From contig MFNS01000001.1 of NCBI GenBank assembly GCA_001783805.1, positions 128,649-192,648 of the forward strand: a DNA stretch of 64,000 nt, given 5' to 3'. The stretch comes from Candidatus Levybacteria bacterium RIFCSPHIGHO2_01_FULL_40_16 (GTDB lineage Bacteria; Patescibacteriota; Microgenomatia; Levybacterales; UBA12049). The position numbers and the translations under genes are program-made. This document shows, in pieces, positions 20,468-41,630 of the stretch (the first letter of the stretch is position 1; every line of letters begins with the position of its first letter). The notes under the pieces were generated by a model that saw only the letters and a list, made by a program, of their open reading frames with translations, was not told the origin of the DNA and made no database searches.

Positions 20468-20469
20468 CT

Positions 20470-21270
20470 GTGGATATATGCTTGATTTGTAAGACAGAAG
20501 ATAAATATCCTCTTTGTAGGAAATGCGCTAAAAAACCTTTTTTGGTTGAAAGAGCAAGGCAAATTCTCGCCAGCATAAGCGATCTTGATTCACTAAGGAA
20601 GATGTACGATTCAAAATATGCCGAAATCAAAAATTTAAATACGTCTTCTTTCTGGAACAGCAAGTTACAGGAATCAAAGCTGGGCAAACAGGACGGCATG
20701 ACTAAAGATAGGGTGAAAACAGCATTCGGATTTTTGCCAAGAAACGCCAAAAGGGTTTTAGATATTGGTGCGGGAAATGGATTTATTGAAGAATTGTTGA
20801 ACCGGAAGAATGTTAAAATCTTTGGCAATGATATCTCGGACGTTTCTATCAAAAATTTGAAAAATAGATTTAGGGGTCAATTCCGCAAGGAGTCAATCTA
20901 CAGAATGAGGTATTCAAAAAGATTTTTTGATGCTATTTTTGCTCTTGAGGTGTTGGAGCACGTTGCGCCAAGCAAGATCTTTAATTCTCTGAAGAAAATT
21001 AGAAAAATTTTAAGGATTAATGGATCGCTCATAATCTCGGTTCCCACAAATGAGGGTTTGGAGAAAATGAAAAACAATCCTAGCGGACACACCAGAACTT
21101 ATACGGAGAATCTAATAAGAGCCGAGTTAAAGATTGCAGGCTTCAAAATTCTCAAACTAAAAACATTATACGCTTTTAAGAGTTTTTATGGTTTTAAGAA
21201 AATTTCCTCAAAAATTCTGCGAAACAGGTGGAAGCCCAATGATATAGTTGTTTTGGCAAAAATTGCATGA
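20470..21270 (+). CDS. class I SAM-dependent methyltransferase with N-terminal Cys4 zinc ribbon
   Basis: The listed ORF 20374..21270 begins inside the tRNA locus, so it was trimmed to the GTG at 20470. N-terminal CLICK...CRKC. Methyltransferase motif I VLDIGAGNGFIEELL and motif block LIISVP. Confidence 0.65.
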   Translation: MDICLICKTEDKYPLCRKCAKKPFLVERARQILASISDLDSLRKMYDSKYAEIKNLNTSSFWNSKLQESKLGKQDGMTKDRVKTAFGFLPRNAKRVLDIGAGNGFIEELLNRKNVKIFGNDISDVSIKNLKNRFRGQFRKESIYRMRYSKRFFDAIFALEVLEHVAPSKIFNSLKKIRKILRINGSLIISVPTNEGLEKMKNNPSGHTRTYTENLIRAELKIAGFKILKLKTLYAFKSFYGFKKISSKILRNRWKPNDIVVLAKIA

Positions 21271-22292
21271 ATATTTTATTTTTTTCCCGTCGATTTTATC
21301 CCCATATAGGGGGAGTTGAGAAGCATGTTTTGGAAATTAGTCGGAACCTGATCAATAAAGGTCACAAAGTTATCGTTGTTACGGAACAGCATGCCCGTAA
21401 CTCTAAAATACAGGAAAATATTGAAGGAATTGATGTATTTAGGATTCCCAATCTAAGCGAGGGGTGGTTTAAGAAAATCCAGATTTGGAATTGGTTTTGG
21501 GCAAACAGAAAGCTTATAAAAAATGCAGACATTGTTCACTGCCATGACGTATTTTTTTGGTATTTACCGTTTAAATTTATATTTCCTTTTAAAAAAATAT
21601 TCACAACCTTTCATGGATATGAAGGTTACCCATTAACGTCAAAAGACATTTTAGTCCATAAAATATCGGAGAAATTATCAATGGGAAATATTTGCATTGG
21701 GGATTTTATTAAAAAATGGTACGGTACAAAACCAACTTTTGTTTCATACGGAGGAGTTAATAAAGTTAAAAGCGAAAAGTTAAAAGTTAAAAGTTCCGAA
21801 GGAGCGGTTTTTATCGGAAGACTTGACGAGCAAACGGGAATAATAACGTATGTTAAGGCGGTTGAGATAATCAAGAAGAAAATTCCAAATTTTGATTTTC
21901 TTATAATTGGAGATGGAAAACTTAAGACTGAAATTAGTGAAAAAATAAAAATATTGAAGCCCCGGAGCAATGCGGAAGAATACTTTAGAAAATATAGTTT
22001 TGCTTTTGTATCAAGATATCTCTCCATATTGGAAGCAATGGCTGCAAAAAGATTGGTCTTTGCAGTTTACGATAATCCTCTTAAGGAGGACTATTTAAGA
22101 ATGGCTCCTTTTTCGAAATATATTACAATTTCAAGTTCCCCATCCGAATTGGTTTCAAAAATTTCTTTTTATCTCGATAATCCTAGAGCTCAAGAGAAAA
22201 TGGTTAAAGAAGCAAATGCTTGGGTAAAAAAATATACTTGGGAAGAAATGACGGACATGTATTTAAAACTTTGGAAATCCGGAACGCATTAA
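21267..22292 (+). CDS. glycosyltransferase family 4 (GT-B)
   Basis: N-terminal MNILFFSRRFYPHIGGVEKHV typical of GT4/GT1 retaining transferases. Contains the heptamer repeat 21764-21791 (KVKSEKLKVKS). Confidence 0.75.
   Translation: MNILFFSRRFYPHIGGVEKHVLEISRNLINKGHKVIVVTEQHARNSKIQENIEGIDVFRIPNLSEGWFKKIQIWNWFWANRKLIKNADIVHCHDVFFWYLPFKFIFPFKKIFTTFHGYEGYPLTSKDILVHKISEKLSMGNICIGDFIKKWYGTKPTFVSYGGVNKVKSEKLKVKSSEGAVFIGRLDEQTGIITYVKAVEIIKKKIPNFDFLIIGDGKLKTEISEKIKILKPRSNAEEYFRKYSFAFVSRYLSILEAMAAKRLVFAVYDNPLKEDYLRMAPFSKYITISSSPSELVSKISFYLDNPRAQEKMVKEANAWVKKYTWEEMTDMYLKLWKSGTH
21764..21791 (+). repeat. heptanucleotide tandem repeat (AGTTAAA)x4, one variant unit, inside the GT4 gene
   Basis: agttaaaagcgaaaagttaaaagttaaa, encoding KVKSEKLKVK. 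Confidence 0.75.
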
Positions 22293-24038
22293 ACCAAATG
22301 CAAGCAGAATAATGAAAGAAGACAGACTAATTAATGATGATAATTTACGCACATTAGTATCCTGAAAAATCACTTCTACCCGATATAATCCCTTATCTAA
22401 ATTGAAAGTGATTACTCCCGGATAATTTGGATTCATAAAACTGAATGGATATAAATTGCCGTTTACTTTGACAATCCAATTTGGGAAGTATAATGTATTT
22501 TCTTTAAAGGCCGCATTTCCTGATGTTACGCGAATTGAATAGGCATGCTTATTGGGCCCCCTAAGCCCCTCAGTAATATTTGCTTTTCCTTGGAGAATAT
22601 CCATGTGCGGGACAACTCGCTGATTGATGTTAAATTTGTCAGAGTTAACCCATATCGTTGTTCCCGGGCCAATTTTAGCCATAGTTTGAGGTAAATCATG
22701 TAAAATAGCGGAATCCGTTAATAGGGGGAGCATTTTTCTATTGCCCCAGTTAAGCATGGTCGTTGTGACTGCAAGCAGACACAAAGCGATAAGGAATTGT
22801 TTATTGGGAATATTTTTTATCACAATGCCTGCAATTATCGACATAAAGAATGAAGTTAATAAAAGCAATCTAAATGAGAATTGGAAGGAGTTAATTAAAG
22901 GAACAGTTTTCCATATTGGGCTTGAAACGGATTGAGTTAGAAAAAGAAGAATCAGAAATGAAATGAGAGATATTAAGTATAGATTTTTTTCCTTAAATTT
23001 TTCTTTTAATTTTTTAAAAAATAAATAAATTGAAAACAAAATAATGGCCCATTCAACATAGCCTACGATAAAAGAGAGTTCTCCCTTGTGTCCTTGGAAT
23101 AGGAATCCCCATCCCCATGGTGAATAGAAGAGCTGATCCAGAGAAATAAATGAAACAACACCTTTTGTTAATAAATTTGTGTATTTTGCCTCTAAAATGG
23201 CAGGCAGCCAGTAAAAAGAAGACAGAATTATTCCGAATATTAAAGAAAAAATACTGTTAAATATAAAATAAAATTTTTTCTTATTTTTATTTAGGAAAAG
23301 ATACAGGCAATAAATTGCAATAAACGGCGTTGAAATAAGTGATATTGCCTGATGTGAAAGTATGAGAAGCGAAAAACTTACACTAGACAGAAAGAACCAT
23401 CGAAAAGTAAGGTTTTCTGACATTTTTTTTATTGTCAAAAAACAAAATGGCAGTATTGCAAACGCAATTACTTCTCCAATTGCCACTCTAAAATGTAAAT
23501 CCACAAGGTGGTAGGGAGAAAAAAGATAAAATAACGCGGCAATAAATGCGGAAAATTTATTCTTAATCTCCTCCTTTATGAAAAAATACATTGTAATTCC
23601 CGACGTAATAAATGAGAAAGCTAGAATAATTTTAAGACTATTAACAAAACTAAATCCTAGAAAATGAAAAAATGCGGTTAGGTAATAAGGCAAGGGGTAA
23701 GCGAAAAGAAAAAGCGGGTAACCGTAGCCGTAAATCATTTCGCTACTCCAGCGAGGAATGAAAACCCCTTCTTTTAAGGATTCATAAAACGACATCGCAA
23801 ATCCTGCATGCAAGCTTAGGTCTCCGCTTTCATATGACCCTTCTCTAAGAACGCTAATAAGAGGTAGGAAAGAGACGAGAATTAAAAGAAAAAATAGATT
23901 AATATTGCGTTTTGGGTAGACATATTTATAGGCTATTATCCCCAACAATAATAGCGTAGAAAATATTAAATTTACTACGATCATTCTGTAAGGGTCCGGC
24001 ATATGGATTATGGTATAGTATAAGAAATAAATAAGCAA
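22263..24038 (-). CDS. large polytopic membrane protein, probable GT-C fold glycosyltransferase
   Basis: 591 aa with more than 12 predicted TM helices, an N-terminal extracytoplasmic loop with acidic residues (EGSYESGDLSLH), and a long C-terminal soluble domain. Architecture resembles ArnT/PMT/YfhO-type enzymes. Confidence 0.5.
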   Translation of the reverse strand: MLIYFLYYTIIHMPDPYRMIVVNLIFSTLLLLGIIAYKYVYPKRNINLFFLLILVSFLPLISVLREGSYESGDLSLHAGFAMSFYESLKEGVFIPRWSSEMIYGYGYPLFLFAYPLPYYLTAFFHFLGFSFVNSLKIILAFSFITSGITMYFFIKEEIKNKFSAFIAALFYLFSPYHLVDLHFRVAIGEVIAFAILPFCFLTIKKMSENLTFRWFFLSSVSFSLLILSHQAISLISTPFIAIYCLYLFLNKNKKKFYFIFNSIFSLIFGIILSSFYWLPAILEAKYTNLLTKGVVSFISLDQLFYSPWGWGFLFQGHKGELSFIVGYVEWAIILFSIYLFFKKLKEKFKEKNLYLISLISFLILLFLTQSVSSPIWKTVPLINSFQFSFRLLLLTSFFMSIIAGIVIKNIPNKQFLIALCLLAVTTTMLNWGNRKMLPLLTDSAILHDLPQTMAKIGPGTTIWVNSDKFNINQRVVPHMDILQGKANITEGLRGPNKHAYSIRVTSGNAAFKENTLYFPNWIVKVNGNLYPFSFMNPNYPGVITFNLDKGLYRVEVIFQDTNVRKLSSLISLSSFIILLAFGLMRSGFPKF

Positions 24039-24039
24039 T

Positions 24040-24843
24040 ATGTTTCGAAAATTACTTCATGAAATAAGTGCAGAGAGAATGGATGCGGAAAATCCTTTAT
24101 TGCCGCCATTTTTTTATCAACAACAAAAAGCATATTCCTTTTGTATGAAATTTGCTAAAGATAAAGATGTTCTGGAAGTTGGAAGCGGGAGTGGATATGG
24201 TACTTATCGATTGGCAAAGGTTGCCAGTAATATTTTAGGAATAGATAGCAGTGAATTGGCTGTCAATAAAAGTAAGGAAAAATATAAAGCTGATAATCTC
24301 AATTTCATTTGGTCTAAAATAGAAGACTATAGAACAAAGCAGGAATTTGATGTTGTCATTGCTCTACAGGTACTAGAACATTTAGAAAAACCGGAATTAT
24401 TTTTGAGAAAAGTAGCAGCTATCTTAAAAAAGGAAGGTTTATTGTTAATAACCACTCCCAACAGCCAAACCCAATCATATAATGAAAATCCGTATCATTA
24501 TAAAGAATATTCTTTTGGAGAATTACGAAATTTTTTCTCAAAATACTTTAGAGAGGTAAATCTCTATGGAATTTCCGGAAACAGCGAGGTAAGAAACTTT
24601 GAGAGAGCGAGGAAAGACCATGTGCTTAGCCTATTGAGTGGGGATAGATTTAAGCTGAGAAGATTTCTTCCCAGAAAAATTAAACAGTTAGCTTTCGATT
24701 TAATTGCATATTTGAATAGATTTTTATATCAGCAAAGAGATAGAAGACTAAACCGAGAAATTTTAGAAGACGATTATAAGATTGCTAAAGAAAATGAACC
24801 CAACCCAATTGACATCATCGCTGTTTGTAGGCATTTAAGATAA
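24040..24843 (+). CDS. class I SAM-dependent methyltransferase
   Basis: Motif I VLEVGSGSGYGTYRLA, post-I DVVIALQVLEHL, LLLITTPN block. Confidence 0.7.
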   Translation: MFRKLLHEISAERMDAENPLLPPFFYQQQKAYSFCMKFAKDKDVLEVGSGSGYGTYRLAKVASNILGIDSSELAVNKSKEKYKADNLNFIWSKIEDYRTKQEFDVVIALQVLEHLEKPELFLRKVAAILKKEGLLLITTPNSQTQSYNENPYHYKEYSFGELRNFFSKYFREVNLYGISGNSEVRNFERARKDHVLSLLSGDRFKLRRFLPRKIKQLAFDLIAYLNRFLYQQRDRRLNREILEDDYKIAKENEPNPIDIIAVCRHLR

Positions 24844-25740
24844 CCCCTTGACCTGCTGAAATCTATTTTTTGCATAAAGAAATAATTCAAAAGTTGTAAA
24901 TAAAGAAAATCTTATCAAAATTCCCAAATATACAAGGAGATTTATCAGAAAAAATTTTCTTTGTGCGTGGTGTTTGTTGTAATACTGGAACATTCCTTTA
25001 TGAAAATTTAATAATGATTTGATTTTGAATTGCCTGGTTGTTCCTCCATGCATATGTTTTACTTTAATCTCTGGAAAATAATAAACGTTCCAACCTGCTT
25101 TTATTGCTCTATAGCAATAGTCGATGTCTTCACTATATATGAAGAATCTTTCGTCTAGATAGCCAATTTTTTTGGTTAGTTTTTTTCTTATGAGCATAAA
25201 GGCTCCCATTATACACTCGACTCTTGCAATTTCATCATCCGGCAAATGAGTAAGATAATAATTCAGGGATTTAATCTTTGGAAATATCTTATATAGTCCA
25301 ATTGTTTGAGAAAATACGTTTATTATTGTTGGTAAAGAGCGTTTGCAAGGTAAATCCAGAGACCCATCATGTTTTATTATTTTGCAACCGGAAATGCCTA
25401 TATTGGGATTTTTGTCCATAAATTTTATTATTAAATCCAAAGAAGAATCTTTCGTGAAGATAACGTCTGAGTTTAAGTGAAGAATATATCTGCTTTTAGA
25501 CAATTTGGTGCCGATATTATATGTTTTACTGTATCCTAAATTTTCTGTATTTTCTTTAATCTTAATTTTTGGAAACTTTTTCCTGACCATCTCTACGGAT
25601 TTATCAATTGACCCATCATCGACTACAATAATTTCAAAACTGATGTTCTTGGTATTTCGATATACGGAGGATAGAGTTCTTTTTAATAATTTTTCAGTGT
25701 TATAATTTCCGATAATTATTGATACGTCAAATTGTTTCAT
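24835..25740 (-). CDS. glycosyltransferase family 2
   Basis: VSIIIGNYNTEKLL...EIIVVDDGSIDKS GT-A/GT2 N-terminal fold with a DxD-type region (LHLNSDV). Confidence 0.8.
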   Translation of the reverse strand: MKQFDVSIIIGNYNTEKLLKRTLSSVYRNTKNISFEIIVVDDGSIDKSVEMVRKKFPKIKIKENTENLGYSKTYNIGTKLSKSRYILHLNSDVIFTKDSSLDLIIKFMDKNPNIGISGCKIIKHDGSLDLPCKRSLPTIINVFSQTIGLYKIFPKIKSLNYYLTHLPDDEIARVECIMGAFMLIRKKLTKKIGYLDERFFIYSEDIDYCYRAIKAGWNVYYFPEIKVKHMHGGTTRQFKIKSLLNFHKGMFQYYNKHHAQRKFFLINLLVYLGILIRFSLFTTFELFLYAKNRFQQVKGLS

Positions 25741-25826
25741 TTGTAATTATTGAATTTTATCATTTATTCTTTAGAAAAGTAAATTAGTTATTATTTGATG
25801 CTATAATATGAATTATTGTCCTAGAT

Positions 25827-26777
25827 TTGAGTATGAAAGTTTCATTTATCGCTACGGTTTATAATGAAGAAAAATCAGTACTGCTATTATTAAAATCTAT
25901 ATTCTCTCAGTCCAGACTTCCGGATGAAATTATTATTGTTGACGGCGGTAGTCGCGACCGGACGGTCGCTAAAATTAAGAATTTAAAATTAAAAATTAAA
26001 AATTATAATGGGAAGTTTAAAATTATTGTAAAAAAAGGGAATAGATCGGTTGGCAGGAATGAAGCGATAAAAAATTCGAGCAATGGAATTATTATTTGTT
26101 CGGATGCAGGATGCATACTCGACAAGAATTGGGTTAAGAACATCATAGAGCCTTTTATAAATCCAGGTGTGGATGTGGTTGCCGGATATTACAAAGGTAA
26201 CGCTAAAACAATTTTTCAAAAATGTTTAATTCCCTATGTTTTAGTGACGGAAGATAAAATTAATTCTCAAAACTTTCTTCCCGCCACCCGCTCAATGGCT
26301 TTTAAAAAGTCAATTTGGGAGAAAGTAGGTAGATTTCCTGAGGAATTTAGTAATAACGAAGATTATGTTTTCGCTAAAAAATTAAAAAAAATTTCCGCCA
26401 ACATTGTTTTTGAAAAAAGTGCAATAGCTTATTGGATGCCAAGGGACAACTTAAAAGATGCCTTTGCAATGTTCTACCGTTTTGCAAAAGGCGATTCCGA
26501 ATCCCGTATTTTTAGACCAAAGGTATTTCTAATTTTTCTCCGGTATATTCTCGGTTTGACTCTTTTGTCATTATTTTTTCTTTTAAAGTCAGACTTAATA
26601 CTTAATACTTTATACTTAATACTTATTATCTATGTCCTTTGGTCGATATTAAAAAATTATAAATACGTCAAGGATATCCGTGCAGTTTTATTTCTCCCTT
26701 TATTGCAAATTATTTCCGATATCGCCGTAATGCTGGGTACAATTGCAGGATTATTTTCTTTTGTAGACCTCGACTAG
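25827..26777 (+). CDS. glycosyltransferase family 2 with C-terminal TM helices
   Basis: VSFIATVYNEEKSV...EIIIVDGGSRDRT GT2 motifs and a C-terminal hydrophobic segment. Contains heptamer repeats at 25972-26006 and 26594-26628. Confidence 0.75.
   Translation: MSMKVSFIATVYNEEKSVLLLLKSIFSQSRLPDEIIIVDGGSRDRTVAKIKNLKLKIKNYNGKFKIIVKKGNRSVGRNEAIKNSSNGIIICSDAGCILDKNWVKNIIEPFINPGVDVVAGYYKGNAKTIFQKCLIPYVLVTEDKINSQNFLPATRSMAFKKSIWEKVGRFPEEFSNNEDYVFAKKLKKISANIVFEKSAIAYWMPRDNLKDAFAMFYRFAKGDSESRIFRPKVFLIFLRYILGLTLLSLFFLLKSDLILNTLYLILIIYVLWSILKNYKYVKDIRAVLFLPLLQIISDIAVMLGTIAGLFSFVDLD
25972..26006 (+). repeat. heptanucleotide tandem repeat (AAATTAA)x5 inside the GT2 gene
   Basis: aaattaagaatttaaaattaaaaattaaaaattat, encoding KNLKLKIKNY. 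Confidence 0.7.
26594..26628 (+). repeat. heptanucleotide tandem repeat (CTTAATA)x5 inside the same GT2 gene (TM region)
   Basis: cttaatacttaatactttatacttaatacttatta, encoding LILNTLYLILI. Confidence 0.75.
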
Positions 26778-28286: not shown

Positions 28287-28323
28287 TTAATCAATATCAA
28301 TATATCATACATTATATTTTTTA

Positions 28324-30724: not shown

Positions 30725-30741
30725 ATGGGCTATAATGCGGT

Positions 30742-33090: not shown

Positions 33091-33916
33091 AAATTATAAG
33101 GTAAAAGAAAGTTTTCTAATCCACTTTCTTGAGAAATATTGGTTTATCCCGTCTGACGTGTTGCAGCGGGGGGTAGAAGCAAACATTTGGGATTTGTGTA
33201 GTTTTAAAAAACCGATACTTGATATCGGAATTGGGAATGGACAAATGAGTAATTTTATTTTTAAGAATAGCCCGCAGATAGATGTCGGGATTGATTTGGA
33301 GGAAGGCGGTCTGGAAAGCGCTAGGAAAACAAACAAATACATAAAAGTGCTTCAAGCTAATGCAGAGAACATGCCTTTTAAAAACGCATCGTTTAATTCC
33401 GTTGTCAGCAATAGTACGTTTGAACACATCGTTAATGACCTTAAGGCGATATCAGAAGTATCACGTGTCTTAGAAAAGGGCGGCCTGTTTTTTACAACTA
33501 TACCAAGTGGATATTTGCAAAAATGGATCTTGGAATATGAAAAAGTGAAAAATAAAGCAAAATCGCAAGAAAATTTAAGGATTTTCAATAAAAGAGCAAA
33601 TCACCTGCATTATAGATCCCTAGCTAATTGGAAAAAGATCTTTAGAGACAATAGCCTTAAGCTTGTGTTCCATAAATATTATTTTCCAAAAAAAACCGCT
33701 TTATTTTGGTACAAACTTTTTAAAATATTTACCTATAAATTGCACGGTCGTGAAATGTGGTCAATTATTGTCAATTCTAGAATAACTAAATTTATTCCTA
33801 AAGATCTGGTGATAAAATATTTGAAAAATATGCTTTTGAAAAACGTTTATGAAAAAGGTTTTTTTGTCAATTCCGGTAATGGCGCTCAATTATTTATGAT
33901 AGTAAGAAAGATATAG
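33068..33916 (+). CDS. class I SAM-dependent methyltransferase
   Basis: Motif I ILDIGIGNGQMS, VLEKGGLFFTTIP block. The listed ORF starts at 33008; the internal ATG at 33068 reduces overlap with the upstream GT4. Confidence 0.65.
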   Translation: MQAIREAKNYKVKESFLIHFLEKYWFIPSDVLQRGVEANIWDLCSFKKPILDIGIGNGQMSNFIFKNSPQIDVGIDLEEGGLESARKTNKYIKVLQANAENMPFKNASFNSVVSNSTFEHIVNDLKAISEVSRVLEKGGLFFTTIPSGYLQKWILEYEKVKNKAKSQENLRIFNKRANHLHYRSLANWKKIFRDNSLKLVFHKYYFPKKTALFWYKLFKIFTYKLHGREMWSIIVNSRITKFIPKDLVIKYLKNMLLKNVYEKGFFVNSGNGAQLFMIVRKI

Positions 33917-33927
33917 TTGTTAAACTT

Positions 33928-36126
33928 ATGGTATCGATAATAATTGTCAATTATAGGGTTGAAAAAGAATTGACGGTTTGCATTTCTTCTATTTTAGAGT
34001 CAAAGCCGAAAGTAAAATTTGAAATAATTGTTGTTGATAATAGCTCAAGCGATAGGTTGAGGGAAGACTTAAGAAAAATCTCTCAAATAAAATATATAAG
34101 AAGCAAAAGAAATATTGGATTCGGAGCAGGAAACAATCTAGGCAATAAATTTGCATCAGGAAAATATCTATTTTTCTTAAATCCGGATACGATCGTAAAA
34201 AAAAGCGTTGTCGATGTCCTTTATAATTTTATGGATAATAATTCAAGCGCTGGCATGATTGCACCGCTTCTTCTTGATCCTTCTGGAAATACATATCCCA
34301 ATCAGGGAAGTAATGAGTATAATTTAGTAAGCGCTTTAGTTACGGAGTCTTTTATAAATAAACTTTTCCCCAATAATCCAATCTCAAAAAACTTTTTTCA
34401 CAAAAATTGGGCAAAAAATGAAACTGAGGAATTTGATGTTGTTCCGGGTACTGCGTTTATGATTTCTAAAGATCTTTTTGAAAAAATCGGAATGTTTGAT
34501 GAAAAATTCTTTTTATATTTTGAAGAATACGATTTGGCAAAAAGGATAAAAGAACTGGAATATAAAAATTATATTGTTCCGCAGGCAAAAGTAATACATG
34601 TATGGGAAGCGAGCGCTAAAAAAAGAAAAGATATAAATAATATTTTTTCTCAAAGCCGTCATTATTTTTTTAAAAAAAACTATGGAGCGCTTTTTGCCTC
34701 AATTGTCAACATTGTCTCAAGCATAGGTAAATTTGAGTTTATTTTAGGTTTCATTCTTGGTATCTCCGTCTTTTTGAGTTTATTCAGAATTAGAGAATTA
34801 ATGATTTTTATAGGTGATCAGGGGTGGTTTTATCTGTCGGCCAGAGACATGCTGATAAACGGCCAAATTCCGCTTGTGGGTATTGCTTCAAGCCATCCCT
34901 GGCTGCATCAAGGCCCATTCTGGACATACTTGCTGGCTTCTTTTCTTTGGATATTTCACTTTAATCCTGTTTCGGGAGCATATCTTACCGCTTTTCTAGG
35001 AGCTTTATCGGTTTTGATGATGTATTTAGTCGGATCAGCTCTTTTTTCAAAAAGAGTAGGTTTATTGGCGTCCTTATTTTATGCAACATCACCTTTGATA
35101 ATTTTCTATATGCGGTTGCCATATCACACGAGTCCAATTCCTTTTTTTGTTCTGATTTATATTTTTTTCCTAAATAAAGTCGTCCAGGGCAAATCAATTT
35201 ATCTGCCGATGACATTAACACTGTTAAGCATTCTTTATAATTTTGAAATCGCAACTTCTACTCTTGGAGTGGTTCTCGTCGGGGTGTTAATATGCAAAAT
35301 AATTAAAAAAAAGATTCTTATTAATAAAATTTTAAATAAAAAAATTGTAATATTGTCTGTAATTGCATTTATAACTCCCCTATTGCCTATGATATTGTAC
35401 GACGTGAAAAATGGATTTCCGCAAACTTTAAAATTTGCTGCCTGGAGCCTCTATAGATCGGTTTCGTTGTTTGGGGATAATCCGCAACAAACGTTTTCAA
35501 TAAATAAAATTATTATCATGTTTAATTTTTTATTTATTAATTTTACAAAAATAATTTTTGTTCAAAGTAATTTAGTTTCCTTAATAATTCTTTTATTCTT
35601 GATAGGTTGGGTTATCTATATGCGGTTGAAGAAAAAAAAAGCCGGCTCATTCAGTTTAGTTTTCCTTTTGGTTTTCATTCCACTTATGCTTGTTATTTTT
35701 AATCAAGTTCCGTCGGATGCATATCTTCCTATATTTTTTCCAACTATAATTCTCCTTTTATCCGCATTTATAGATTTTATTATGAATAAAAAAGCAATGT
35801 TTATTCCGGTATCTATCCTTATAATCATCTTAGCTGCGGGCAATATTAACTTTATGTTAAAAAATGATTTTGCGTTTGATAAACCAAGCAAGTTATTTAC
35901 CCTAGATAACCGTTTGCAGGCAGTACATCAAATATTGGATATAACAGGAAATAGAAACTATAATTTAAAAGGTAAAGGACAGGGAAGTCAATTTGAAAGT
36001 TTTACCATGAATTACGAATATCTGGCCTGGTGGTTAGGCCATGGGCCGTCAACGAATAACGAAAATCTTAGGATATATGTATCGGAATCCGTAAAAGGTA
36101 TAAAAATAGAGGAAGATAATAAATGA
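33928..36126 (+). CDS. bifunctional glycosyltransferase: N-terminal GT2 fused to C-terminal GT-C (PMT_2/ArnT-like) membrane domain
   Basis: N-terminus VSIIIVNYRVEKEL...EIIVVDNSSSDRL (GT2). After about residue 270, about 12 TM helices with the loop FIGDQGWFYLSARDML (DE-like motif). Confidence 0.7.
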   Translation: MVSIIIVNYRVEKELTVCISSILESKPKVKFEIIVVDNSSSDRLREDLRKISQIKYIRSKRNIGFGAGNNLGNKFASGKYLFFLNPDTIVKKSVVDVLYNFMDNNSSAGMIAPLLLDPSGNTYPNQGSNEYNLVSALVTESFINKLFPNNPISKNFFHKNWAKNETEEFDVVPGTAFMISKDLFEKIGMFDEKFFLYFEEYDLAKRIKELEYKNYIVPQAKVIHVWEASAKKRKDINNIFSQSRHYFFKKNYGALFASIVNIVSSIGKFEFILGFILGISVFLSLFRIRELMIFIGDQGWFYLSARDMLINGQIPLVGIASSHPWLHQGPFWTYLLASFLWIFHFNPVSGAYLTAFLGALSVLMMYLVGSALFSKRVGLLASLFYATSPLIIFYMRLPYHTSPIPFFVLIYIFFLNKVVQGKSIYLPMTLTLLSILYNFEIATSTLGVVLVGVLICKIIKKKILINKILNKKIVILSVIAFITPLLPMILYDVKNGFPQTLKFAAWSLYRSVSLFGDNPQQTFSINKIIIMFNFLFINFTKIIFVQSNLVSLIILLFLIGWVIYMRLKKKKAGSFSLVFLLVFIPLMLVIFNQVPSDAYLPIFFPTIILLLSAFIDFIMNKKAMFIPVSILIIILAAGNINFMLKNDFAFDKPSKLFTLDNRLQAVHQILDITGNRNYNLKGKGQGSQFESFTMNYEYLAWWLGHGPSTNNENLRIYVSESVKGIKIEEDNK

Positions 36127-36869
36127 TTAGCGTAGTAATTTTAACAAAAAATGAAGAAGAAAATATCGCAAGATGTCTGGAGTCAGTCAGATGGTGCAAT
36201 GAAATTATTATCGTTGATGATAATTCAACTGATAGAACTATTGAAATTGCTAAAAAATATAAAACAGCAATATACTCGCGTACATTAAATAATGATTTTT
36301 CGTCTCAACGCAATTTCGGATTATCCAAATGCAAAAACGAATGGATGCTTTTTCTCGATAGTGACGAGGTAATTTCGGATCCGTTAGTTTATGAGATGCA
36401 AAACGCAATTAGCCTTAAAGATCAAAATTTAAGAAACTTTAACGGATTTTATCTCAGAAGATCGGATTTTATGTGGGGAAAACGCCTAGAACACGGAGAA
36501 ACAAATATAAAATTATTAAGATTGGGAAGAAAAGGAACGGGCATTTGGAAAGGTATCGCTCATGAGAGATGGAATATTGAAGGTTTGGTTGGAAATTTGA
36601 TAAATCCCATACTTCATTACCCTCACAGAAATCTGGAAGAATTCCTTAGGGAAATAAATTTCTATACGGACATTAGGGCAAAGGAATTAAAAGATAAAAA
36701 CGTTAAGGTGTTTTTCTGGTCGATACTTTTATACCCCATAGGCAAATTCTTAGTTAATTATTTTATCAGAGGTGGATTTCTAGATGGAATTCATGGTTTG
36801 GTTATCGCAATAACTATGTCCTTCCATTCATTTTTGGTTAGGGGTAAGTTGTGGATAAGAAATGAATAA
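36123..36869 (+). CDS. glycosyltransferase family 2
   Basis: ISVVILTKNEEENIARCLESV...IIIVDDNSTDRT and the DSDE (DxD) motif. Confidence 0.8.
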   Translation: MISVVILTKNEEENIARCLESVRWCNEIIIVDDNSTDRTIEIAKKYKTAIYSRTLNNDFSSQRNFGLSKCKNEWMLFLDSDEVISDPLVYEMQNAISLKDQNLRNFNGFYLRRSDFMWGKRLEHGETNIKLLRLGRKGTGIWKGIAHERWNIEGLVGNLINPILHYPHRNLEEFLREINFYTDIRAKELKDKNVKVFFWSILLYPIGKFLVNYFIRGGFLDGIHGLVIAITMSFHSFLVRGKLWIRNE

Positions 36870-38085
36870 GAATAATGGGATAAAAAAATGCCGCTCCTGC
36901 TTATCTAAAAAATTAATAGACATTCTTTCTTTAGGGGAACAATGCTTATCGGATTTTCTGGTGGACGACAAAATGCCCAAGAAGTATCCCCTGGATTTAG
37001 TTTTATGTACCGAGTGTGACTTATTGCAGTTAAAAAACACCGTTCCGCAAAAATTTTTATATACCTCAAGGTATGGCTATAGATCAGGAATAAACAATAC
37101 GATGAAAAATGAATTAAAAAGAATTGTTGAAGTTTCGTTGAGCAAAATTAATACTAATAAAAAAATAGTAGCATTGGATATAGGCGCAAATGACGGAACA
37201 TTACTAAGCTTTTATCGTAAGAATATATTCAAGATTGCAGTTGAGCCAATTAAGAAATTTTCATCGGAATGCCGTAAGCATGCAGATGCTGTCATAAATG
37301 ATTTTTTTAATTATGAATCTTATAAAGCAAAGCTAAAGAATGTGAAGGCAGATATTGTTACGGCTATCTCCTGTTTTTATGACATAGATGATCCAAATAA
37401 ATTTGTGTCAGATGTAAGCAAAGTGCTGGACGAGAATGGATTATTTGTTATATCTCAGAACTATTTGGTTGGAATGCTGAAGAATAATGCGTTTGACAAT
37501 ATGGTACACGAACACCTTGAGTATTATTCTCTTTTATCTCTTGAAAAATTAATGGCAAGACACGGCTTAGAAGTTTTTAATGTAGAAAAAACGCAGATTA
37601 ACGGAGGAAGCTTTATAACCTTTATTTCTCATAAAAATATGAGAACGGTTGGCAAATCTGTAATTAAATTGAGAGAATACGAAAAAAATTTAAAACTTAA
37701 CGAATTAAAAATCTATAATGATTTTGCAAAAAGAGTTAGAGAAAATAGTAAAGATCTTTCTAATTTAATTACAAAATTAGCGAAAGATAAAAAGAAAATT
37801 TATGTATACGGCGCATCAACTAGGGGAAATACGTTGTTGCAATTTTACAATTTGGATAATAAACTGATTAAGGCTGCAGTTGAGCGTAATCCGGAAAAAT
37901 GGGGAAAGAGAATTTCGTCTTTGAATATTCCTATTATTTCCGAGCAAGAGGCAAGAAAACAAAAGCCTGACTATATGTTGGTTTTACCCTGGTTTTTCAA
38001 AGAAGAATTTTTACAAAGAGAGAAAAATTATTTAGATTCAGGAGGACATTTTATATTTCCATTACCTAAAATTCAAATAATCTAA
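36862..38085 (+). CDS. SAM-dependent C-methyltransferase-like protein (N-terminal Zn-binding domain)
   Basis: N-terminal CRSC...CTEC putative zinc-binding domain, methyltransferase core ALDIGANDGTL, and a C-terminal domain as in sugar C-methyltransferases (TylC3/NovU-like architecture). Confidence 0.65.
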   Translation: MNKNNGIKKCRSCLSKKLIDILSLGEQCLSDFLVDDKMPKKYPLDLVLCTECDLLQLKNTVPQKFLYTSRYGYRSGINNTMKNELKRIVEVSLSKINTNKKIVALDIGANDGTLLSFYRKNIFKIAVEPIKKFSSECRKHADAVINDFFNYESYKAKLKNVKADIVTAISCFYDIDDPNKFVSDVSKVLDENGLFVISQNYLVGMLKNNAFDNMVHEHLEYYSLLSLEKLMARHGLEVFNVEKTQINGGSFITFISHKNMRTVGKSVIKLREYEKNLKLNELKIYNDFAKRVRENSKDLSNLITKLAKDKKKIYVYGASTRGNTLLQFYNLDNKLIKAAVERNPEKWGKRISSLNIPIISEQEARKQKPDYMLVLPWFFKEEFLQREKNYLDSGGHFIFPLPKIQII

Positions 38086-39287
38086 TGAAAAAAATATTCA
38101 CTGCTATTCTATTTCTGTTTCCATTAGGGGAAATTTTACGCTTAGATTTTGCCAATGGGGTTTCTCTCAAGCCTTTAGACATTGGAGTGGGAATTATCGT
38201 AGTTTTGTGGGCAATATTTAAAATGGCAAAAAAAGAAAAAATAAAGCAAAAACGTGTTTATGTTCCGATCCTTCTATTTGCTGGATCGGGAGCGTTATCA
38301 TTATTGATTAATTATTCTAATTTGACAATTAACCAGTTTTTCATATCCTTAACGTATTTGGTAAGATGGGTTGCTTATGCAGGAATATTTTTTGTTGTCA
38401 GTGATTTCGATAAGGAGTTTAAGGAAAGAATATTAAAGTTATTAATTGTTATCGGTTCTTTAATTGTTGCTTCAGGATATTTGCAATATATTTTTTATCC
38501 CAACCTTAGAAATTTGTTTTATTTAGGGTGGGATGAGCATATGTACAGAATATTTTCCGTATTTCTTGATCCAAATTTTGCCGGAGCTTTTTTTGTTTTA
38601 TTTTTTTTGTTCTTAATAAATTTATTCCTGAAGCGAAAAAGTATTCCAATAGCTTTACTTTCATTCGTAACTTTAGGTGCGGTCTTCTTAACGTTTTCCA
38701 GAAGCGCGTTAATTATGCTTGTCGTAAGCTCGAGCCTATTATTTGTACTTATGAATAGAAAAATATTAATAGTTTTTTTGTTAGTAATTATTCTATCAGT
38801 ATTAGCAATATCATCAAGAAATTTCAATATTGAGAACATTAATTTATTCAGAGTTGCTTCATCAGAGGCCCGTATCGAAACAACAAGAAATGCCATAAAG
38901 ATAATACAAGATCATCCAATTCTCGGAGTTGGATTCAATGCCTATAGATATGCCCAGTTTCGATATGGGTTTCGTAATGAAGCAAACCCTATAAGTCACG
39001 CTGATGCCTCACCGGACAACAGTTTCTTATTTATTATGGCTACTACGGGGATTGTAGGTTTTATCTTATATTCGTTTTTGTGGCTTAGGTTACTCGAAAA
39101 TGCTTCTATTTTAGCTATTGCTTCAGTTGCGGGAGTATTCATAGACAGTCTGTTTATTAATGGCTTATTCTATCCTTTTATTGCGCTGTGGCTTTGGATA
39201 ATTTTAGCTCTTTCAATAAATCCAGCACCCTCCTCTCGAAGCGTTAAATTCAAACAGAAGAAATACAGACCTAAGCGTGCCGGTTAA
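38085..39287 (+). CDS. O-antigen ligase/polymerase family membrane protein (WaaL/Wzy-like)
   Basis: About 10 TM helices, the TFSRSALIMLVVSS block typical of the O-antigen ligase domain, and a periplasmic loop with HPILGVGFNAYRY. Confidence 0.7.
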   Translation: MKKIFTAILFLFPLGEILRLDFANGVSLKPLDIGVGIIVVLWAIFKMAKKEKIKQKRVYVPILLFAGSGALSLLINYSNLTINQFFISLTYLVRWVAYAGIFFVVSDFDKEFKERILKLLIVIGSLIVASGYLQYIFYPNLRNLFYLGWDEHMYRIFSVFLDPNFAGAFFVLFFLFLINLFLKRKSIPIALLSFVTLGAVFLTFSRSALIMLVVSSSLLFVLMNRKILIVFLLVIILSVLAISSRNFNIENINLFRVASSEARIETTRNAIKIIQDHPILGVGFNAYRYAQFRYGFRNEANPISHADASPDNSFLFIMATTGIVGFILYSFLWLRLLENASILAIASVAGVFIDSLFINGLFYPFIALWLWIILALSINPAPSSRSVKFKQKKYRPKRAG

Positions 39288-39291
39288 TCAC

Positions 39292-40839
39292 TTAGTTTTT
39301 AAAAGGTGTTGGATAAAAAAACAGCTGACTTAAAGGATCAAAATAATCGATTCGATGTCTGTTATATTTTAAGATCGGAATCTCCGGATATAACGATTTT
39401 TCTTTTGAAAGAATTTTATAAATCTGAATACCTGCGTCCTCGTCGATTACCGCATACTTTTTAATTGAGTATGAGGAAATTAAATCTTTTAATTCGTAGT
39501 TTTTCGCATACGAAAGAGATAATGGAAAAAGAAATGGTCCCGAATATATCCCATATGGGTCAGATAAAGCTTGAGATGTAATAAATATCGGTTTTTTATT
39601 TTGTAAATAAGTATCAATCATTTTCTCGAGCTTCTCATGGTTCCACCCGGGTTGATTTATAAATATAATTTCGTCTGAGTACTGGCCTTCAACCTGAGGA
39701 CGTGCAAAATGGCTTTCGATTAATAAACCCTTAGGAAGTGTTTTAACAAATTTGCCCATTTCAAGATAGGGTATGGGTTGAGTCAATAATGATAATGCAG
39801 ACATAGAAACGAAAAGTAAATATCCGATTACCATTAGTATCAACATTCCCCTTTTTTTTAAAAGTATTGCGACAAGCAGCGAGAAACCAAATCCAGCGAT
39901 TATCCCATGACGTCCAAAAAGAAGCGGATCAAACCATTGACTTGTAATAATCAATGGAAAAATCCATAAAAACGTAATAATAAATAAATTTATATTTTTT
40001 CTAAATATTCTTATGAGCGAAATAGTTCCTAAGATAAATATAAGAGAAGCATTATTTTGTAAAACAGAAATTAATACGTTTCTGATAAATCTAAGAATCG
40101 TTATTGAAGATGAGACATTTGGTATAAGCTTTATATCTTCTCTAAATAAATATTGATATATTCCATTTTGAATTGACTCATGGAGAGCGTAAGAGACAAA
40201 GAGGCCATTCGTTAGAATGACAAGGGTAATAGTTAAAAACATTGATAATATTATTACGGCAATCTTCTGTTTGTTTAGAAAATACACGATTGATAAAAAT
40301 AGCGGTGTCCATAAAATGACTAGCGGATTAGTAAGCAATGCTAATCCAAATAATAAGCAACCAATAAGAATACGGAAATTTGAACGAGTTTTATTTTTTA
40401 CATACGAAGCAGTAAGGTATAATGAAATAAGAAAAAAATAAACGTACGTTGACTCGGCCATTATGGAAACATTCGTTATCCAGTAAAGAGGCATTAACGA
40501 GCTAATAATTGTTGCAATTATTGCTATTTTCTTACTTGTAAGGATTTCAACCAACCGATAAAAACAGTAGAGAGAAATTGCCGAAAAAATTATTTGCGCA
40601 AAAATAACCGCAAAAGATGGATTAATGTTTAAAAATTCGGCAATGTGGAATACCGGCCAAAACAAAATAATATATCCTGCGTGGAAAGGTATGTGTCCGG
40701 AAGCAATTGCCTGAAAATAATTTGAATATGCAAATCTCTCTAAATATTCGGGTGAGTCAAAAAAAACAGGAAGAGAATTAATAAAAGTTATTCGGGATAA
40801 AACAAAGATACAAAGCAGAAAAAAAGTTTTTAACTTCAT
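39292..40839 (-). CDS. polytopic membrane protein, probable GT-C glycosyltransferase
   Basis: First loop FFDSPEYLERFAY (acidic DE-like motif) after TM1. More than 11 TM helices and a C-terminal soluble domain. Confidence 0.5.
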   Translation of the reverse strand: MKLKTFFLLCIFVLSRITFINSLPVFFDSPEYLERFAYSNYFQAIASGHIPFHAGYIILFWPVFHIAEFLNINPSFAVIFAQIIFSAISLYCFYRLVEILTSKKIAIIATIISSLMPLYWITNVSIMAESTYVYFFLISLYLTASYVKNKTRSNFRILIGCLLFGLALLTNPLVILWTPLFLSIVYFLNKQKIAVIILSMFLTITLVILTNGLFVSYALHESIQNGIYQYLFREDIKLIPNVSSSITILRFIRNVLISVLQNNASLIFILGTISLIRIFRKNINLFIITFLWIFPLIITSQWFDPLLFGRHGIIAGFGFSLLVAILLKKRGMLILMVIGYLLFVSMSALSLLTQPIPYLEMGKFVKTLPKGLLIESHFARPQVEGQYSDEIIFINQPGWNHEKLEKMIDTYLQNKKPIFITSQALSDPYGIYSGPFLFPLSLSYAKNYELKDLISSYSIKKYAVIDEDAGIQIYKILSKEKSLYPEIPILKYNRHRIDYFDPLSQLFFYPTPFKN

Positions 40840-41546
40840 TAAGGAGAATATGTCACTTTTAATTCCTTTTCATTCTTGTTTCCTGCCAGATCGGTTGCTG
40901 TAATTTTTATTTTATTTTCTCCGTTTTGAAGAGGAAGACTGTAGGAAAAATTGCCATTATCATCTGTTATTGCCCAGAAACCGTTAACGGTTACTTTTAC
41001 ATCCGTATCCGTTGTGCCCTTGATGTTTGCGCTATTCTGATCCTTGGAAAAAGATTGATTATCGGATGGAGAGCTAATATTAAGGAATGGAGGAGCTTTT
41101 TTGAGAATTATTGTTAGAGACTGAGAATAATCGCTTTCCTTGTCATTCTCAATTGCTTTTGTTTTTATTATATTTTCGCCGGTTGAGATTGCTTTCTTGA
41201 ATGAAAAACTTCCATCGTCTTTAGTTTTGGTTTCGTCAACCGGATTTCCATTTATGTATAAGCTTATGGTTTGATTTTTCGCAGAAAATCCAGAGATTAT
41301 AATGTTTGCACTTGCAGTTGCCTGAGGAAGTGAATTAAGTATCGGGGGAGCAATGAAAATTGGATTTTGATTCTGGAATTGCTCCTGATTAGTTCTTGAT
41401 CCCGAAAGAAAGAGGCTAAGATTAGCCAAGAAAGGAATTCCAAACTTAAATATCAAAAGAATTATGAGGACAATACCAAGAATACTTAATACAAGATTTT
41501 TCTTAGTTTTTTGCTCTAATCTTCGGGATAGTCTTGATCTGACCAT
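40839..41546 (-). CDS. membrane-anchored protein with extracytoplasmic Ig-like/beta-sandwich repeats
   Basis: Basic cytoplasmic N-terminus and a single TM helix (LVLSILGIVLIILLIF). Repeated segments rich in S/T/N/K with motifs such as NGNPVDETKTKDDGSFSF and DDNGNFSYSL, typical of Big-like domains. Confidence 0.5.
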   Translation of the reverse strand: MVRSRLSRRLEQKTKKNLVLSILGIVLIILLIFKFGIPFLANLSLFLSGSRTNQEQFQNQNPIFIAPPILNSLPQATASANIIISGFSAKNQTISLYINGNPVDETKTKDDGSFSFKKAISTGENIIKTKAIENDKESDYSQSLTIILKKAPPFLNISSPSDNQSFSKDQNSANIKGTTDTDVKVTVNGFWAITDDNGNFSYSLPLQNGENKIKITATDLAGNKNEKELKVTYSP

Positions 41547-41558
41547 AATTTACTCCAG

Positions 41559-41630
41559 AGCCGATGGTGGGAATCGAACTCACGACCTAGTGTTTACGAA
41601 ACACTTGCTCTACCACTGAGCCACATCGGC
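41559..41630 (-). tRNA. tRNA-Thr (anticodon CGU)
   Basis: Reverse complement folds as a tRNA with one A.C mismatch in the T-stem: acceptor GCCGATG/CATCGGC, D-arm GCTC-AGTGGTA-GAGC, anticodon stem AGTGT/ACACT with loop TTCGTAA (CGT), T-arm GTGAG-TTCGATT-CCCAC. Confidence 0.75.

Follow-up and report, generated by a model that had tools for sequence, protein, structure and literature searches.

A putative cell-envelope glycan locus with GT-C glycosyltransferases at a conserved site in Levybacteria

Gene content of the locus

A stretch of 64,000 nucleotides from Candidatus Levybacteria bacterium RIFCSPHIGHO2_01_FULL_40_16 (contig MFNS01000001.1, positions 128,649 to 192,648), hereafter the window, was analysed. 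It holds a block of ~21 kb (20470-41546) that is flanked by tRNA-Val(CAC) and tRNA-Thr(CGT) and comprises 18 open reading frames (ORFs), named i1 to i18 (Table 1). Gene families were assigned with Pfam at gathering cut-offs and with NCBIfam, membrane topology by hydropathy and tRNAs with ARAGORN. According to Pfam, the block encodes five methyltransferases, two family 4 glycosyltransferases (GT4), three stand-alone family 2 glycosyltransferases (GT2), one fusion of a GT2 with a GT-C domain, four further GT-C enzymes, a Wzx flippase, a Wzy_C protein and a protein with Ig-like domains. Intergenic gaps in the ORF listing were all below 90 nt, leaving no room for further genes.

A preliminary description made from the letters of the sequence had reported 18 genes between a nested tRNA-Val and tRNA-Thr, and both ARAGORN and the ORF list agreed. 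Its two GT4 (i2, i11), its four GT2 (i5, i6, i14 and the N-terminal domain of i13) and its five GT-C enzymes, one of them fused to a GT2 (i13), were recovered by Pfam. The same was true of its five methyltransferases, including one resembling C-methyltransferases with a Zn ribbon (i15, matching Methyltransf_14 and Methyltransf_13). The flippase, the O-antigen ligase/polymerase-like protein and the membrane-anchored Ig-like protein corresponded to i10, i16 and i18. All classes were right, but the tally adds up to 18 only if the i13 fusion is counted both as GT2 and as GT-C. The view of a surface-glycan cluster rich in GT-C enzymes and methyltransferases was borne out by these assignments.

None of the 18 products matched a nucleotide-sugar enzyme, Wzz, integrase or phosphoglycosyltransferase (PGT) family in Pfam or NCBIfam; the first three absences had been noted before. 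No Bac_transf or Glycos_transf_4 (PF00953) match was present in the locus, and the sole PF00953 protein of the window was MraY, in the mraY-ftsW-murG block. An initiating PGT may be encoded elsewhere in the genome. In NCBIfam, all 18 proteins remained without a match above any curated cut-off, and specific enzyme names can therefore not be assigned. Gene callers placed the start of i3 at 24002, and the true start of i12 probably lies 3' of 33008.

Table 1. Features of the glycan locus and its bounding tRNA genes (window coordinates; TM, transmembrane segment; SAM, S-adenosylmethionine).
Feature	Position	Strand	Evidence
tRNA-Val(CAC), left boundary, inner copy	20339-20411	+	ARAGORN
i1, class I SAM methyltransferase	20470..21270	+	Methyltransf_23/11/25 1e-14 to 2e-11; 266-aa start per gene calls
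i2, cytoplasmic GT4	21267..22292	+	Glyco_transf_4 5e-15, Glycos_transf_1 9e-11; no TM
i3, polytopic GT-C-type (PTPS_related)	22263..24038	-	PF10131 55.8 bits (cut-off 26.4); 11 hydrophobic segments
i4, SAM methyltransferase, accessory	24040..24843	+	Methyltransf_31 1e-18
i5, GT2 with one C-terminal TM, accessory	24835..25740	-	Glycos_transf_2 7e-24; TM 263-281
i6, membrane-anchored GT2, C-terminal TM hairpin, putative conserved backbone	25827..26777	+	Glycos_transf_2 2e-21; TMs 235-304
i7, GT-C (PMT_2), accessory or type-specific	26751..28286	-	PMT_2 31.7 bits (cut-off 26.1); MWDEK after TM1
i8, SAM methyltransferase, accessory	28324..29121	+	Methyltransf_31 8e-20
i9, GT-C (PMT_2/PMT) with DE motif	29111..30724	+	PMT_2 37.9 bits, PMT 29.0 bits; 10 hydrophobic segments
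i10, Wzx/MOP-family flippase	30742..31965	+	Polysacc_synt_3 2e-65; 12 hydrophobic segments
i11, GT4, type-specific	31966..33090	+	Glycos_transf_1 4e-28
i12, SAM methyltransferase, accessory	33008..33916	+	Methyltransf_11 5e-18
i13, bifunctional: GT2 (GT-A fold) 1-235, linker helices, GT-C ~268-732	33928..36126	+	Glycos_transf_2 3e-23 and PMT_2
i14, soluble GT2	36123..36869	+	Glycos_transf_2 3e-24
i15, sugar C-methyltransferase-type, N-terminal Zn-binding domain	36862..38085	+	Methyltransf_14 3e-47, Methyltransf_13 2e-11
i16, polytopic Wzy_C-domain protein (polymerase or ligase/oligosaccharyltransferase type)	38085..39287	+	Wzy_C 6e-21; 13 hydrophobic segments
i17, GT-C (PMT_2), accessory or type-specific	39292..40839	-	PMT_2 31.7 bits; 11 hydrophobic segments
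i18, bitopic, two extracytoplasmic Ig-like domains	40839..41546	-	Glucodextran_B 3e-19; TM 19-37
tRNA-Thr(CGT), right boundary	41558-41630	-	ARAGORN

Conservation of the site

The left flank of the block consists of core genes (mraY-ftsW-murG-ftsA-ftsZ, ileS, a second ftsW/rodA, the genes for L21 and L27, parB and lepB), and so does the right flank (pyrE, pyrF, pyrD, the F-type ATP synthase operon, dnaE, gatB/gatA and murT/gatD). Copies of ParB with identical sequence and the same neighbours were found in long Rifle aquifer metagenome contigs. Relatives were collected by a ParB-seeded scan with one genome per species. This gave 80 loci, nearly all labelled Levybacteria or Patescibacteria and referred to by L numbers, onto which all window proteins were mapped by tblastn. 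Counts at the site refer to 39 species whose sequence continued for at least 8 kb beyond LepB and to a view of 10 kb, hence they are minima.

The upstream block IleRS-FtsW-L21-(L27)-ParB-LepB was kept in essentially all 80 loci. Homologues of locus genes stood directly 3' of LepB in 36 of the 39 other Levybacteria species. The most widely kept locus gene was i2, with homologues at the site in at least 31 species, followed by i3 and i6 (at least 20 each) and Wzx (at least 11). Orthologues of i1 were 63-71% identical in L007, L087, L090 and L093, and those of i15 were 59-77% identical in many relatives. The gene i14 was always located directly 3' of i13; it adjoined the fusion gene in L087, L090, L091, L092 and L093 with 56-73% identity.

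The order at the site was IleRS-FtsW-L21-L27-ParB-LepB-tRNA-Val, then the locus with the Ig protein at its end, tRNA-Thr, and (pyrE) or the atp operon. tRNA-Val(CAC) was present 3' of LepB in ~60 related species, and tRNA-Thr(CGT) followed the i18 orthologue wherever the right end was visible (L030, L044, L053, L076 and L093). In L093, whose ParB and AtpD are 89% and 87% identical to those of the window, L21-L27-ParB-LepB-tRNA-Val, a locus of 17 kb and tRNA-Thr-atpC-atpD lay within 22 kb. The Roizmanbacteria contig L092 kept i6, i3 and the run i13-i14-PMT_2-Wzy_C-Ig-atpC.

L067 was one of the three exceptions. Here other genes were inserted first, and a methyltransferase appeared at the edge of the view. 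On this complete Levybacteria chromosome (CP066685; L067 positions 16809-19997, minus strand), a thiamine-related ABC transporter, a thiamine pyrophosphokinase and a surface protein of 1062 aa with Peptidase_C39_2, fn3 and CHB_HEX_C domains follow tRNA-Val, and glycan-type genes start only beyond these. The gene order in L067 indicates that the site also takes cargo unrelated to glycans.

The GC content was 0.331 in the block, 0.401 in the left flank and 0.384 in the right flank (33% against 38-40%); the preliminary description had judged by eye that the block is more AT-rich. The drop affected all codon positions: GC at the first position (GC1) was 0.378 versus 0.457 (p=4e-7) and at the third (GC3) 0.309 versus 0.360 (p=3e-4). 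A GC dip at the locus, 4.2 points on average, was found in 39 of 40 species; L093, for example, had 0.35 within the locus and 0.40 and 0.43 outside. As nearly all species share it, low GC is no mark of recent import here. Low GC is also a known trait of O-antigen clusters, which likewise reside between fixed housekeeping genes and are exchanged via flanking recombination (PMC7685785).

The two bounding tRNA genes, the lower GC and the disruption of the left tRNA-Val by an insertion might suggest a horizontally acquired mobile genomic island that integrated beside a tRNA gene, and an island had been proposed initially. This explanation is very improbable. Pfam revealed no integrase or other mobility gene, and a repeat search at the block ends found no att-like direct repeats pairing left and right; the sole tRNA-derived repeat was a local duplication of the tRNA 5' half at 20284 and 20339. 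The same tRNAs, flanks and backbone genes occur across the phylum, with the right-hand module also in Roizmanbacteria. Conserved synteny, named in the preliminary description as one sign of a core locus, was thus found for the backbone. Backbone genes were 65-74% identical to those of relatives, in the range of the flanking core genes LepB (68-70%) and FtsW (75%). The insertion in tRNA-Val is only 112 nt long and lies wholly left of the glycan genes. Conserved flanks and tRNAs, the shared GC dip and the lack of mobility signals in these searches together mean that the block is no recent integration of a mobile island. The locus is old and resident at a fixed site, and both tRNAs are part of the ancestral arrangement.

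Variable gene content and mosaicism

Within this conserved frame the gene content varied, and the variability expected of an island was found in gene content and allele types, but not in the backbone or the site. Short loci of 7-9 kb (L030, L044, L053, L076) comprised only GT4-GT2(i6)-Wzx-GT2(i14)-Wzy_C-Ig and no GT-C gene by tblastn, whereas long loci of 17-22 kb carried up to ~7 GT-C genes. Extra genes in L087, L090, L091 and a contig from ENA included YfhO-type and GT87 GT-C enzymes, more PMT_2 proteins, Methyltransf_21 and other methyltransferases, with 6-7 GT-C in all. The accessory set of the window was i4, i5, i7, i8, i9, i12 and i17; the allele types of Wzx, Wzy_C and glycosyltransferases (GTs) also differed. 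From sequence comparison, i2, i6, i10, i13, i14, i16 and i18 are taken as the putative conserved backbone.

No orthologue of i4 or i5 was present in any of five compared relatives. For i8, i12 and i17 an orthologue was found only in L091, with 67%, 62% (288 aa) and 65% identity, respectively. i7 and i9 were missing from L093, and i7 was located elsewhere in the locus in L087 and L090. Identities to the relatives were discordant. Towards L091, i7 reached 83%, Wzx (i10) 80%, i11 78%, Wzy_C (i16) 71% and i9 68%, while the corresponding values towards L087/L090 were 45-49%, 51-52%, 36-38%, 47% and 45-46%; i11 was also 75% identical to L093. The fusion i13 behaved in the opposite way (52% towards L091, 65-68% towards L087/L090), and i6, i14 and i18 were 67-74% identical to L091, L087 and L090 alike. 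No single history fits both sets of identities, which means that locus segments were exchanged between lineages. The pattern indicates that accessory genes are probably swapped between lineages, like those of a serotype locus at a fixed site.

Recent duplication within the locus as a source of the GT-C and methyltransferase genes was rejected: the GT-C paralogues had no mutual BLASTP similarity, and the methyltransferases were only 23-30% identical.

GT-C enzymes and the GT2-GT-C fusion

The GT-C candidates contained 7-14 hydrophobic segments each by hydropathy, and i3, i7, i9, i17 and the C-terminal domain of i13 all scored above Pfam gathering cut-offs. The DE-motif loops attributed to two of them were located after TM1 of i7 (MWDEK) and i9 (NMDEWH); NMDEWH was invariant in seven orthologues of i9. 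Orthologues of i3, which were also found in Roizmanbacteria, matched both PTPS_related and PMT_2 in precomputed Pfam results, and this ties PTPS_related to the same superfamily as PMT_2. In sequence searches against PDB, neither i3 and i9 as single sequences nor the profiles built for the i3, i9 and i13 families retrieved a GT-C match. The proteins are too divergent for this kind of search, and a fold comparison was needed. Alignment of the i3 and i9 families to E. coli ArnT with hhalign yielded probabilities below 1%, with shallow profiles and a single sequence as target.

Full-length members of the i13 family formed at least 120 sequence clusters with identities of 43-79%; they belong to Levybacteria, Roizmanbacteria and other Patescibacteria. 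An AlphaFold2 (AF2) model of full-length i13, built on 31 family sequences, reached a predicted local distance difference test (pLDDT) value of 86.7 and a predicted template modelling score (pTM) of 0.82; its best 50 Foldseek matches were all GT-A enzymes. The C-terminal domain was modelled alone with pLDDT 86.3 and pTM 0.88. Its best PDB match was ArnT (5F15) with a template modelling score of 0.61 and probability 1.0, and further matches were AglB, STT3, PglB, ALG9, ALG12, ALG3, Pmt1/2/4, DPY19, AftA, EmbA/B/C and PimE. Besides GT-C enzymes, matches at high probability (0.9-1.0) were limited to PIG-U, a related subunit of the glycosylphosphatidylinositol (GPI) transamidase, and two short partial matches to RNA-modifying enzymes. 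As modelled, the C-terminal domain of i13 has a GT-C fold. None of the GT-C calls was reassigned to a transporter family; the Pfam cut-offs were passed, and transporter and receptor chains appeared for the i13 domain only at Foldseek probabilities below 0.1. Residues 294-307 (FIGDQGW...SARD), which form the loop behind the first TM of the domain, were invariant in the family, as would be expected of a GT-C active-site loop.

On the ENA contig of P0003 (locus coordinates 2791-5382), a GT2-PMT_2 fusion of 863 aa occupied the i6 slot between an i3-type gene and wzx. Together with i13, this makes two independent GT2-GT-C fusions at the locus, and both support a functional coupling of GT2 and GT-C. 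No described GT2-GT-C fusion was found in the searchable literature, and nothing relevant was found on candidate phyla radiation (CPR) bacteria, Patescibacteria, Levybacteria or Microgenomates with GT-C or glycan loci.

Other components of the locus

The membrane-anchored GT2 i6 showed weak matches to Glyco_transf_21, PgaC and HpnI-like proteins over ~280 residues and is a candidate lipid-directed or initiating transferase. Alignment with E. coli ArnC by hhalign covered only the generic N-terminal 125 residues. The only flippase candidate in the locus was i10, which matched the NCBIfam MOP flippase with 2e-52 and 179 bits, below the cut-off of 273 bits. Pfam identified no GtrA/SMR gene in the locus.

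NCBIfam matches of i16 were below cut-off, and a weak one was named 'putative O-glycosylation ligase'. By its sequence, i16 may equally be a polymerase, a ligase or an oligosaccharyltransferase. In relatives it always adjoined i18, and i18 invariably closed the locus, ahead of tRNA-Thr and the atp operon. The best 120 listed sequence clusters of i18 were 64-74% identical, which is much better conserved than the enzymes. By Pfam, i18 has no Wzz fold and is a bitopic Ig-domain protein. It was considered as a glycosylation target and rejected: it contains no Ser/Thr-rich stretch, which leaves it unsupported as a substrate. More likely, i18 is a partner of the adjoining Wzy_C protein, or an unrelated envelope protein.

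C-methyltransferases of the i15 type (TylC3/TcaB9 family) normally act on nucleoside diphosphate (NDP)-4-keto-6-deoxyhexoses. From i15 and the four O/N-methyltransferase-like enzymes, sugars with methyl groups and branches are predicted. Genes for the sugar nucleotides must be located elsewhere in the genome; the Roizmanbacteria locus carried some of them.

The right flank encodes a MurT/GatD pair (58053-60364, minus strand), a Mur ligase with MurT_C and a CobB/CobQ-type glutamine amidotransferase. Isoglutamine amidation of lipid II by MurT/GatD is typical of Gram-positive walls. With MraY-FtsW-MurG in the other flank, these predicted proteins point to a peptidoglycan wall of the Gram-positive type.

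This bears on the idea of a classical Wzx/Wzy-dependent O-antigen cluster of lipopolysaccharide (LPS), in which i16 would be the WaaL ligase. The general description of such clusters (PMC7685785) is matched by the presence of Wzx and of a Wzy_C domain, by the many GTs, and by the low GC and the fixed place of the locus among housekeeping genes. The locus, however, had neither an initiating PGT nor Wzz nor sugar-nucleotide genes in the family searches, so that it is not a textbook O-antigen cluster, and the preliminary description was right in setting it apart from the classical pathway (it also encodes no integrase). Outer-membrane and lipid A genes were absent from the 64-kb window, five GT-C enzymes are atypical of O-antigen clusters, and MurT/GatD in the flank belongs to walls of the Gram-positive type. 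An LPS O-antigen is thus highly unlikely.

The nested tRNA-Val at the left boundary

The nesting of tRNA-Val was real. An ancestral tRNA-Val(CAC) spans 20284..20468 on the plus strand and is split at position 37/38, the canonical intron position, into a 5' half (20284-20319) and a 3' half (20432-20468). The insert of 112 nt (20320-20431) carries a complete, different tRNA-Val(CAC) at 20339-20411. In-silico removal of the insert restored a perfect 73-nt tRNA-Val cloverleaf, which differed from the intact orthologue in L007, the closest species, by one base in the T-loop. The ends of the insert pair with each other (CCTGCCCGACTTTGTG / ACAAAGT..CAGGCGGG).

In L011 (~11500-11760) and L019 (~12170-12340), tRNA fragments also flanked tRNA-Val. 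The junctions of L011 carried the same ends, with CCTGCCCG and CAGGCGGG at opposite sides, and L019 had only a CCTG-initiated junction. A second hairpin-like insert followed a TTCACAC anticodon loop in L011. These observations suggest a small element or intervening sequence targeting tRNA genes in Levybacteria. The insertion in tRNA-Val is independent of the glycan genes.

Further observations at the flanks

The genes pyrE-pyrF-pyrD (41677-44306) are located between tRNA-Thr and atpC, and at least pyrE was similarly placed in L087 and L090. In L091, L092 and L093 the pyr block was absent from this position, and atpC came soon after the gene of the Ig protein (and tRNA-Thr, where scanned). A distant PyrD-like gene (28-30% identical) was present between tRNA-Val and i1 in L007 and L093. 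Left of the locus, three adjoining genes (9750-12667, minus strand) had little or no annotation, one of them with a C-terminal dockerin domain. Homologues of two of the three adjoined glycan genes after LepB in L072 (9819-11517) and L075 (13285-14938), and may be surface proteins tied to the locus in other species.

Proposed assembly pathway

We consider the block to be a resident cell-envelope glycan locus of Levybacteria and related Microgenomates, at a fixed site and with exchanged cassettes, that combines Wzx/Wzy_C-type with GT-C assembly; we put the probability of this explanation at roughly 0.6. As part of it, type-specific Wzx, Wzy_C and GT alleles would be recombined between lineages as in O-antigen or capsule serotype loci. 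The minimal conserved set of GT4, membrane GT2, Wzx, GT2 and Wzy_C looks like a Wzx/Wzy-type assembly line, and no PGT was found in any locus examined.

The gene identities, the GT-C fold of i13, the conserved site, the variable content, the mosaic identities and the shift in composition come directly from the analyses; which lipid serves as carrier, in what order the steps run, which enzyme makes the donor and what the acceptor is, we infer from the predicted functions. Cytoplasmic GT4 and GT2 enzymes would assemble an oligosaccharide on a polyprenyl-phosphate carrier. Methylated sugars would be provided by the SAM methyltransferases and by the C-methyltransferase, whose nucleotide-sugar substrate would come from genes elsewhere in the genome; the lipid-linked sugars themselves may be methylated, as the preliminary description had suggested. 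The lipid-linked unit would be flipped by Wzx, and the Wzy_C protein would polymerise it or pass it to an acceptor. The five GT-C enzymes may add residues at the outer face of the membrane from polyprenyl-phosphate-monosaccharide donors, which a membrane-anchored GT2 (i6, i5 or the GT2 half of i13) would supply. The product may be a glycopolymer, either of the secondary wall or anchored in the membrane, or else a coat of glycoproteins; the cell carrying it would have peptidoglycan of the Gram-positive type. Peptidoglycan, lipid and proteins are all three compatible as the acceptor.

If proteins were the acceptor, the locus could serve protein O-glycosylation, the idea put forward in the preliminary description, with i7 and i9 moving single sugars from polyprenyl-phosphate to Ser/Thr of secreted, S-layer or pilin proteins and i16 acting as an oligosaccharyltransferase of the PglL/PilO type. 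Both i7 and i9 have the loop-1 DE motif typical of PMT/GT39 and match PMT_2/PMT. The Wzy_C domain is common to O-oligosaccharyltransferases, and the weak match of i16 to an O-glycosylation ligase points the same way. In streptococci, systems of GT-C and GtrB-type proteins glycosylate membrane-associated proteins (PMC12041528). On the other hand, no acceptor is evident, since i18 as the only non-enzyme has no Ser/Thr-rich region. The C-terminal or MIR domains of PMT were not found by Pfam, short loci keep Wzx and Wzy_C without any GT-C, and the Wzy_C sequence fits polymerases and ligases just as well. Protein O-glycosylation is thus a possible but doubtful function.

Several points weigh against the envelope-glycan locus as proposed. 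The i6 profile scored 1e-7 with DPMS, 2e-5 with GtrB and 1e-3 with ArnC, compared with 5e-13 for chondroitin synthase, so that i6 shows no specific affinity to the known synthases of polyprenyl-phosphate sugars over ordinary GT2. For the GT2 half of i13, the resemblance is to GT-A enzymes that elongate glycans and not to GtrB. Among the five GT-C enzymes, the structural comparison covered i13, and the others were assigned with Pfam scores of 31.7-55.8 bits; i3, i9 and their profiles found no sequence match in PDB, a search from which i7 and i17 were left out. The locus includes no initiating PGT, nucleotide-sugar genes, GtrA-type flippase, LCP ligase or chain-length regulator, and key steps thus depend on genes outside the window. 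The mosaic structure was deduced from four relatives without a species tree. Throughout, the mechanism is composed of predicted functions.

Comparison with known systems

The closest documented precedents are the four-component pathways of streptococci and lactococci, and three-component GT-C decoration systems are also close. In the four-component pathways, undecaprenyl phosphate receives its sugar from a membrane GT2, and the product may be lengthened by cytoplasmic GTs. After export by a flippase of the Wzx type, which moves the lipid-linked monosaccharide in the GacK/WpsG systems, it is polymerised or transferred by GT-C enzymes (PMC10821137). The side-chain pathways of the rhamnose polysaccharides (WpsA/B-WpsG-WpsH/I-WpsJ; GacI/J/K/L) need no undecaprenyl-pyrophosphate (Und-PP) PGT for their branch and have strain-variable gene content, like the locus (PMC10821137). 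They differ in that the locus had no small activator of the GacJ/WpsB type, no rhamnan genes and no TagO. The sequence comparisons of i6 did not single it out as a GacI/GtrB-type synthase. In addition, up to 5-7 GT-C enzymes were present per locus instead of 1-2, along with the GT2-GT-C fusion and Wzy_C.

In the three-component framework, GT-C enzymes use lipid-phosphate-sugar donors outside the membrane (PMC11127046). Examples are GtrA/GtrB/Gtr*, ArnC/ArnE-F/ArnT, CsbB/GtcA/YfhO and the GT136 pentofuranose systems. The locus encodes GT-C enzymes as such multi-component extracytoplasmic glycosylation systems do, and i6 has the architecture of a GT2 with a C-terminal TM hairpin. The model of the i13 GT-C domain was nearest to ArnT, and YfhO-type GT-C genes were also present in loci of relatives. 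The locus, however, has no GtrA/SMR/MATE flippase, and its donor synthase is only a candidate. Three-component systems decorate a polymer made elsewhere, whereas here the GT-C genes sit in the main assembly locus.

Enterobacterial O-antigen and capsule serotype loci of the galF-gnd type show the same pattern of a fixed site between housekeeping genes, low GC, type-specific wzx/wzy/GT genes and recombination (PMC7685785). Unlike these, the locus had no sugar-nucleotide genes, PGT or Wzz and was dominated by GT-C enzymes and methyltransferases. Its host belongs to the CPR, has a peptidoglycan wall and gave no evidence of LPS.

Elsewhere, GT-C batteries occur in mycobacterial wall assembly and in the decoration of Gram-positive wall polysaccharides. 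The assembly of mycobacterial arabinogalactan, lipoarabinomannan (LAM) and phosphatidylinositol mannosides (PIM) by Emb, Aft, PimE and Mpt proteins uses a non-redundant GT-C battery that draws on polyprenyl-phosphate sugars to build wall glycan outside the membrane. A GT87-family gene in L091 and the presence of AftA and Emb among the structural matches of i13 resemble this system. In contrast, none of the genes of the decaprenyl-phospho-arabinose (DPA) or polyprenyl-phospho-mannose (PPM) pathways was seen, the enzymes are much smaller and have no carbohydrate-binding modules, and Wzx and Wzy_C are present. Actinobacterial and fungal PMT (GT39) share the PMT_2/PMT matches, and their DE motif recurs in i7 and i9, likewise in the first extracytoplasmic loop. 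The scores, however, were low (29-38 bits), the PMT match of i9 was partial (residues 86-245), and the C-terminal four-TM region and MIR domains of PMT were absent; i9 and its family profile had no sequence match to PMT structures, i7 having been left out of that search.

Implications for Levybacteria

All parts of the locus fall into known enzyme classes and imply no new principle. The locus combines Wzx/Wzy features of the serotype type with a GT-C battery. The GT2-GT-C fusion and the pair of Wzy_C and Ig proteins are concrete, tractable targets, and the fixed flanks would allow simple typing of glycan-locus variants of Levybacteria in metagenomes.

Next to nothing is known of the surface chemistry of CPR bacteria, which are believed to live in attachment to other cells. 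If the genome measures roughly 0.78 Mb, this one locus takes up about 2.7% of it; a related complete Levybacteria chromosome has 0.76 Mb. Conservation of the locus across a phylum-level group, together with serotype-like diversity, points to a surface glycan that the cells cannot do without and that selection diversifies, for example through phage, host recognition or grazing. More tentatively, Microgenomates (Levybacteria, Roizmanbacteria and their kin) might share a lineage-wide glycopolymer built mostly by GT-C enzymes outside the membrane, with i13 coupling a cytoplasmic to an extracytoplasmic step in one polypeptide and with exchanged cassettes of Wzx, Wzy_C, GT-C and methyltransferase genes setting phage or host specificity. 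If this were true, ultra-small CPR bacteria would have a wall chemistry in the style of mycobacterial arabinogalactan or the lactococcal pellicle.

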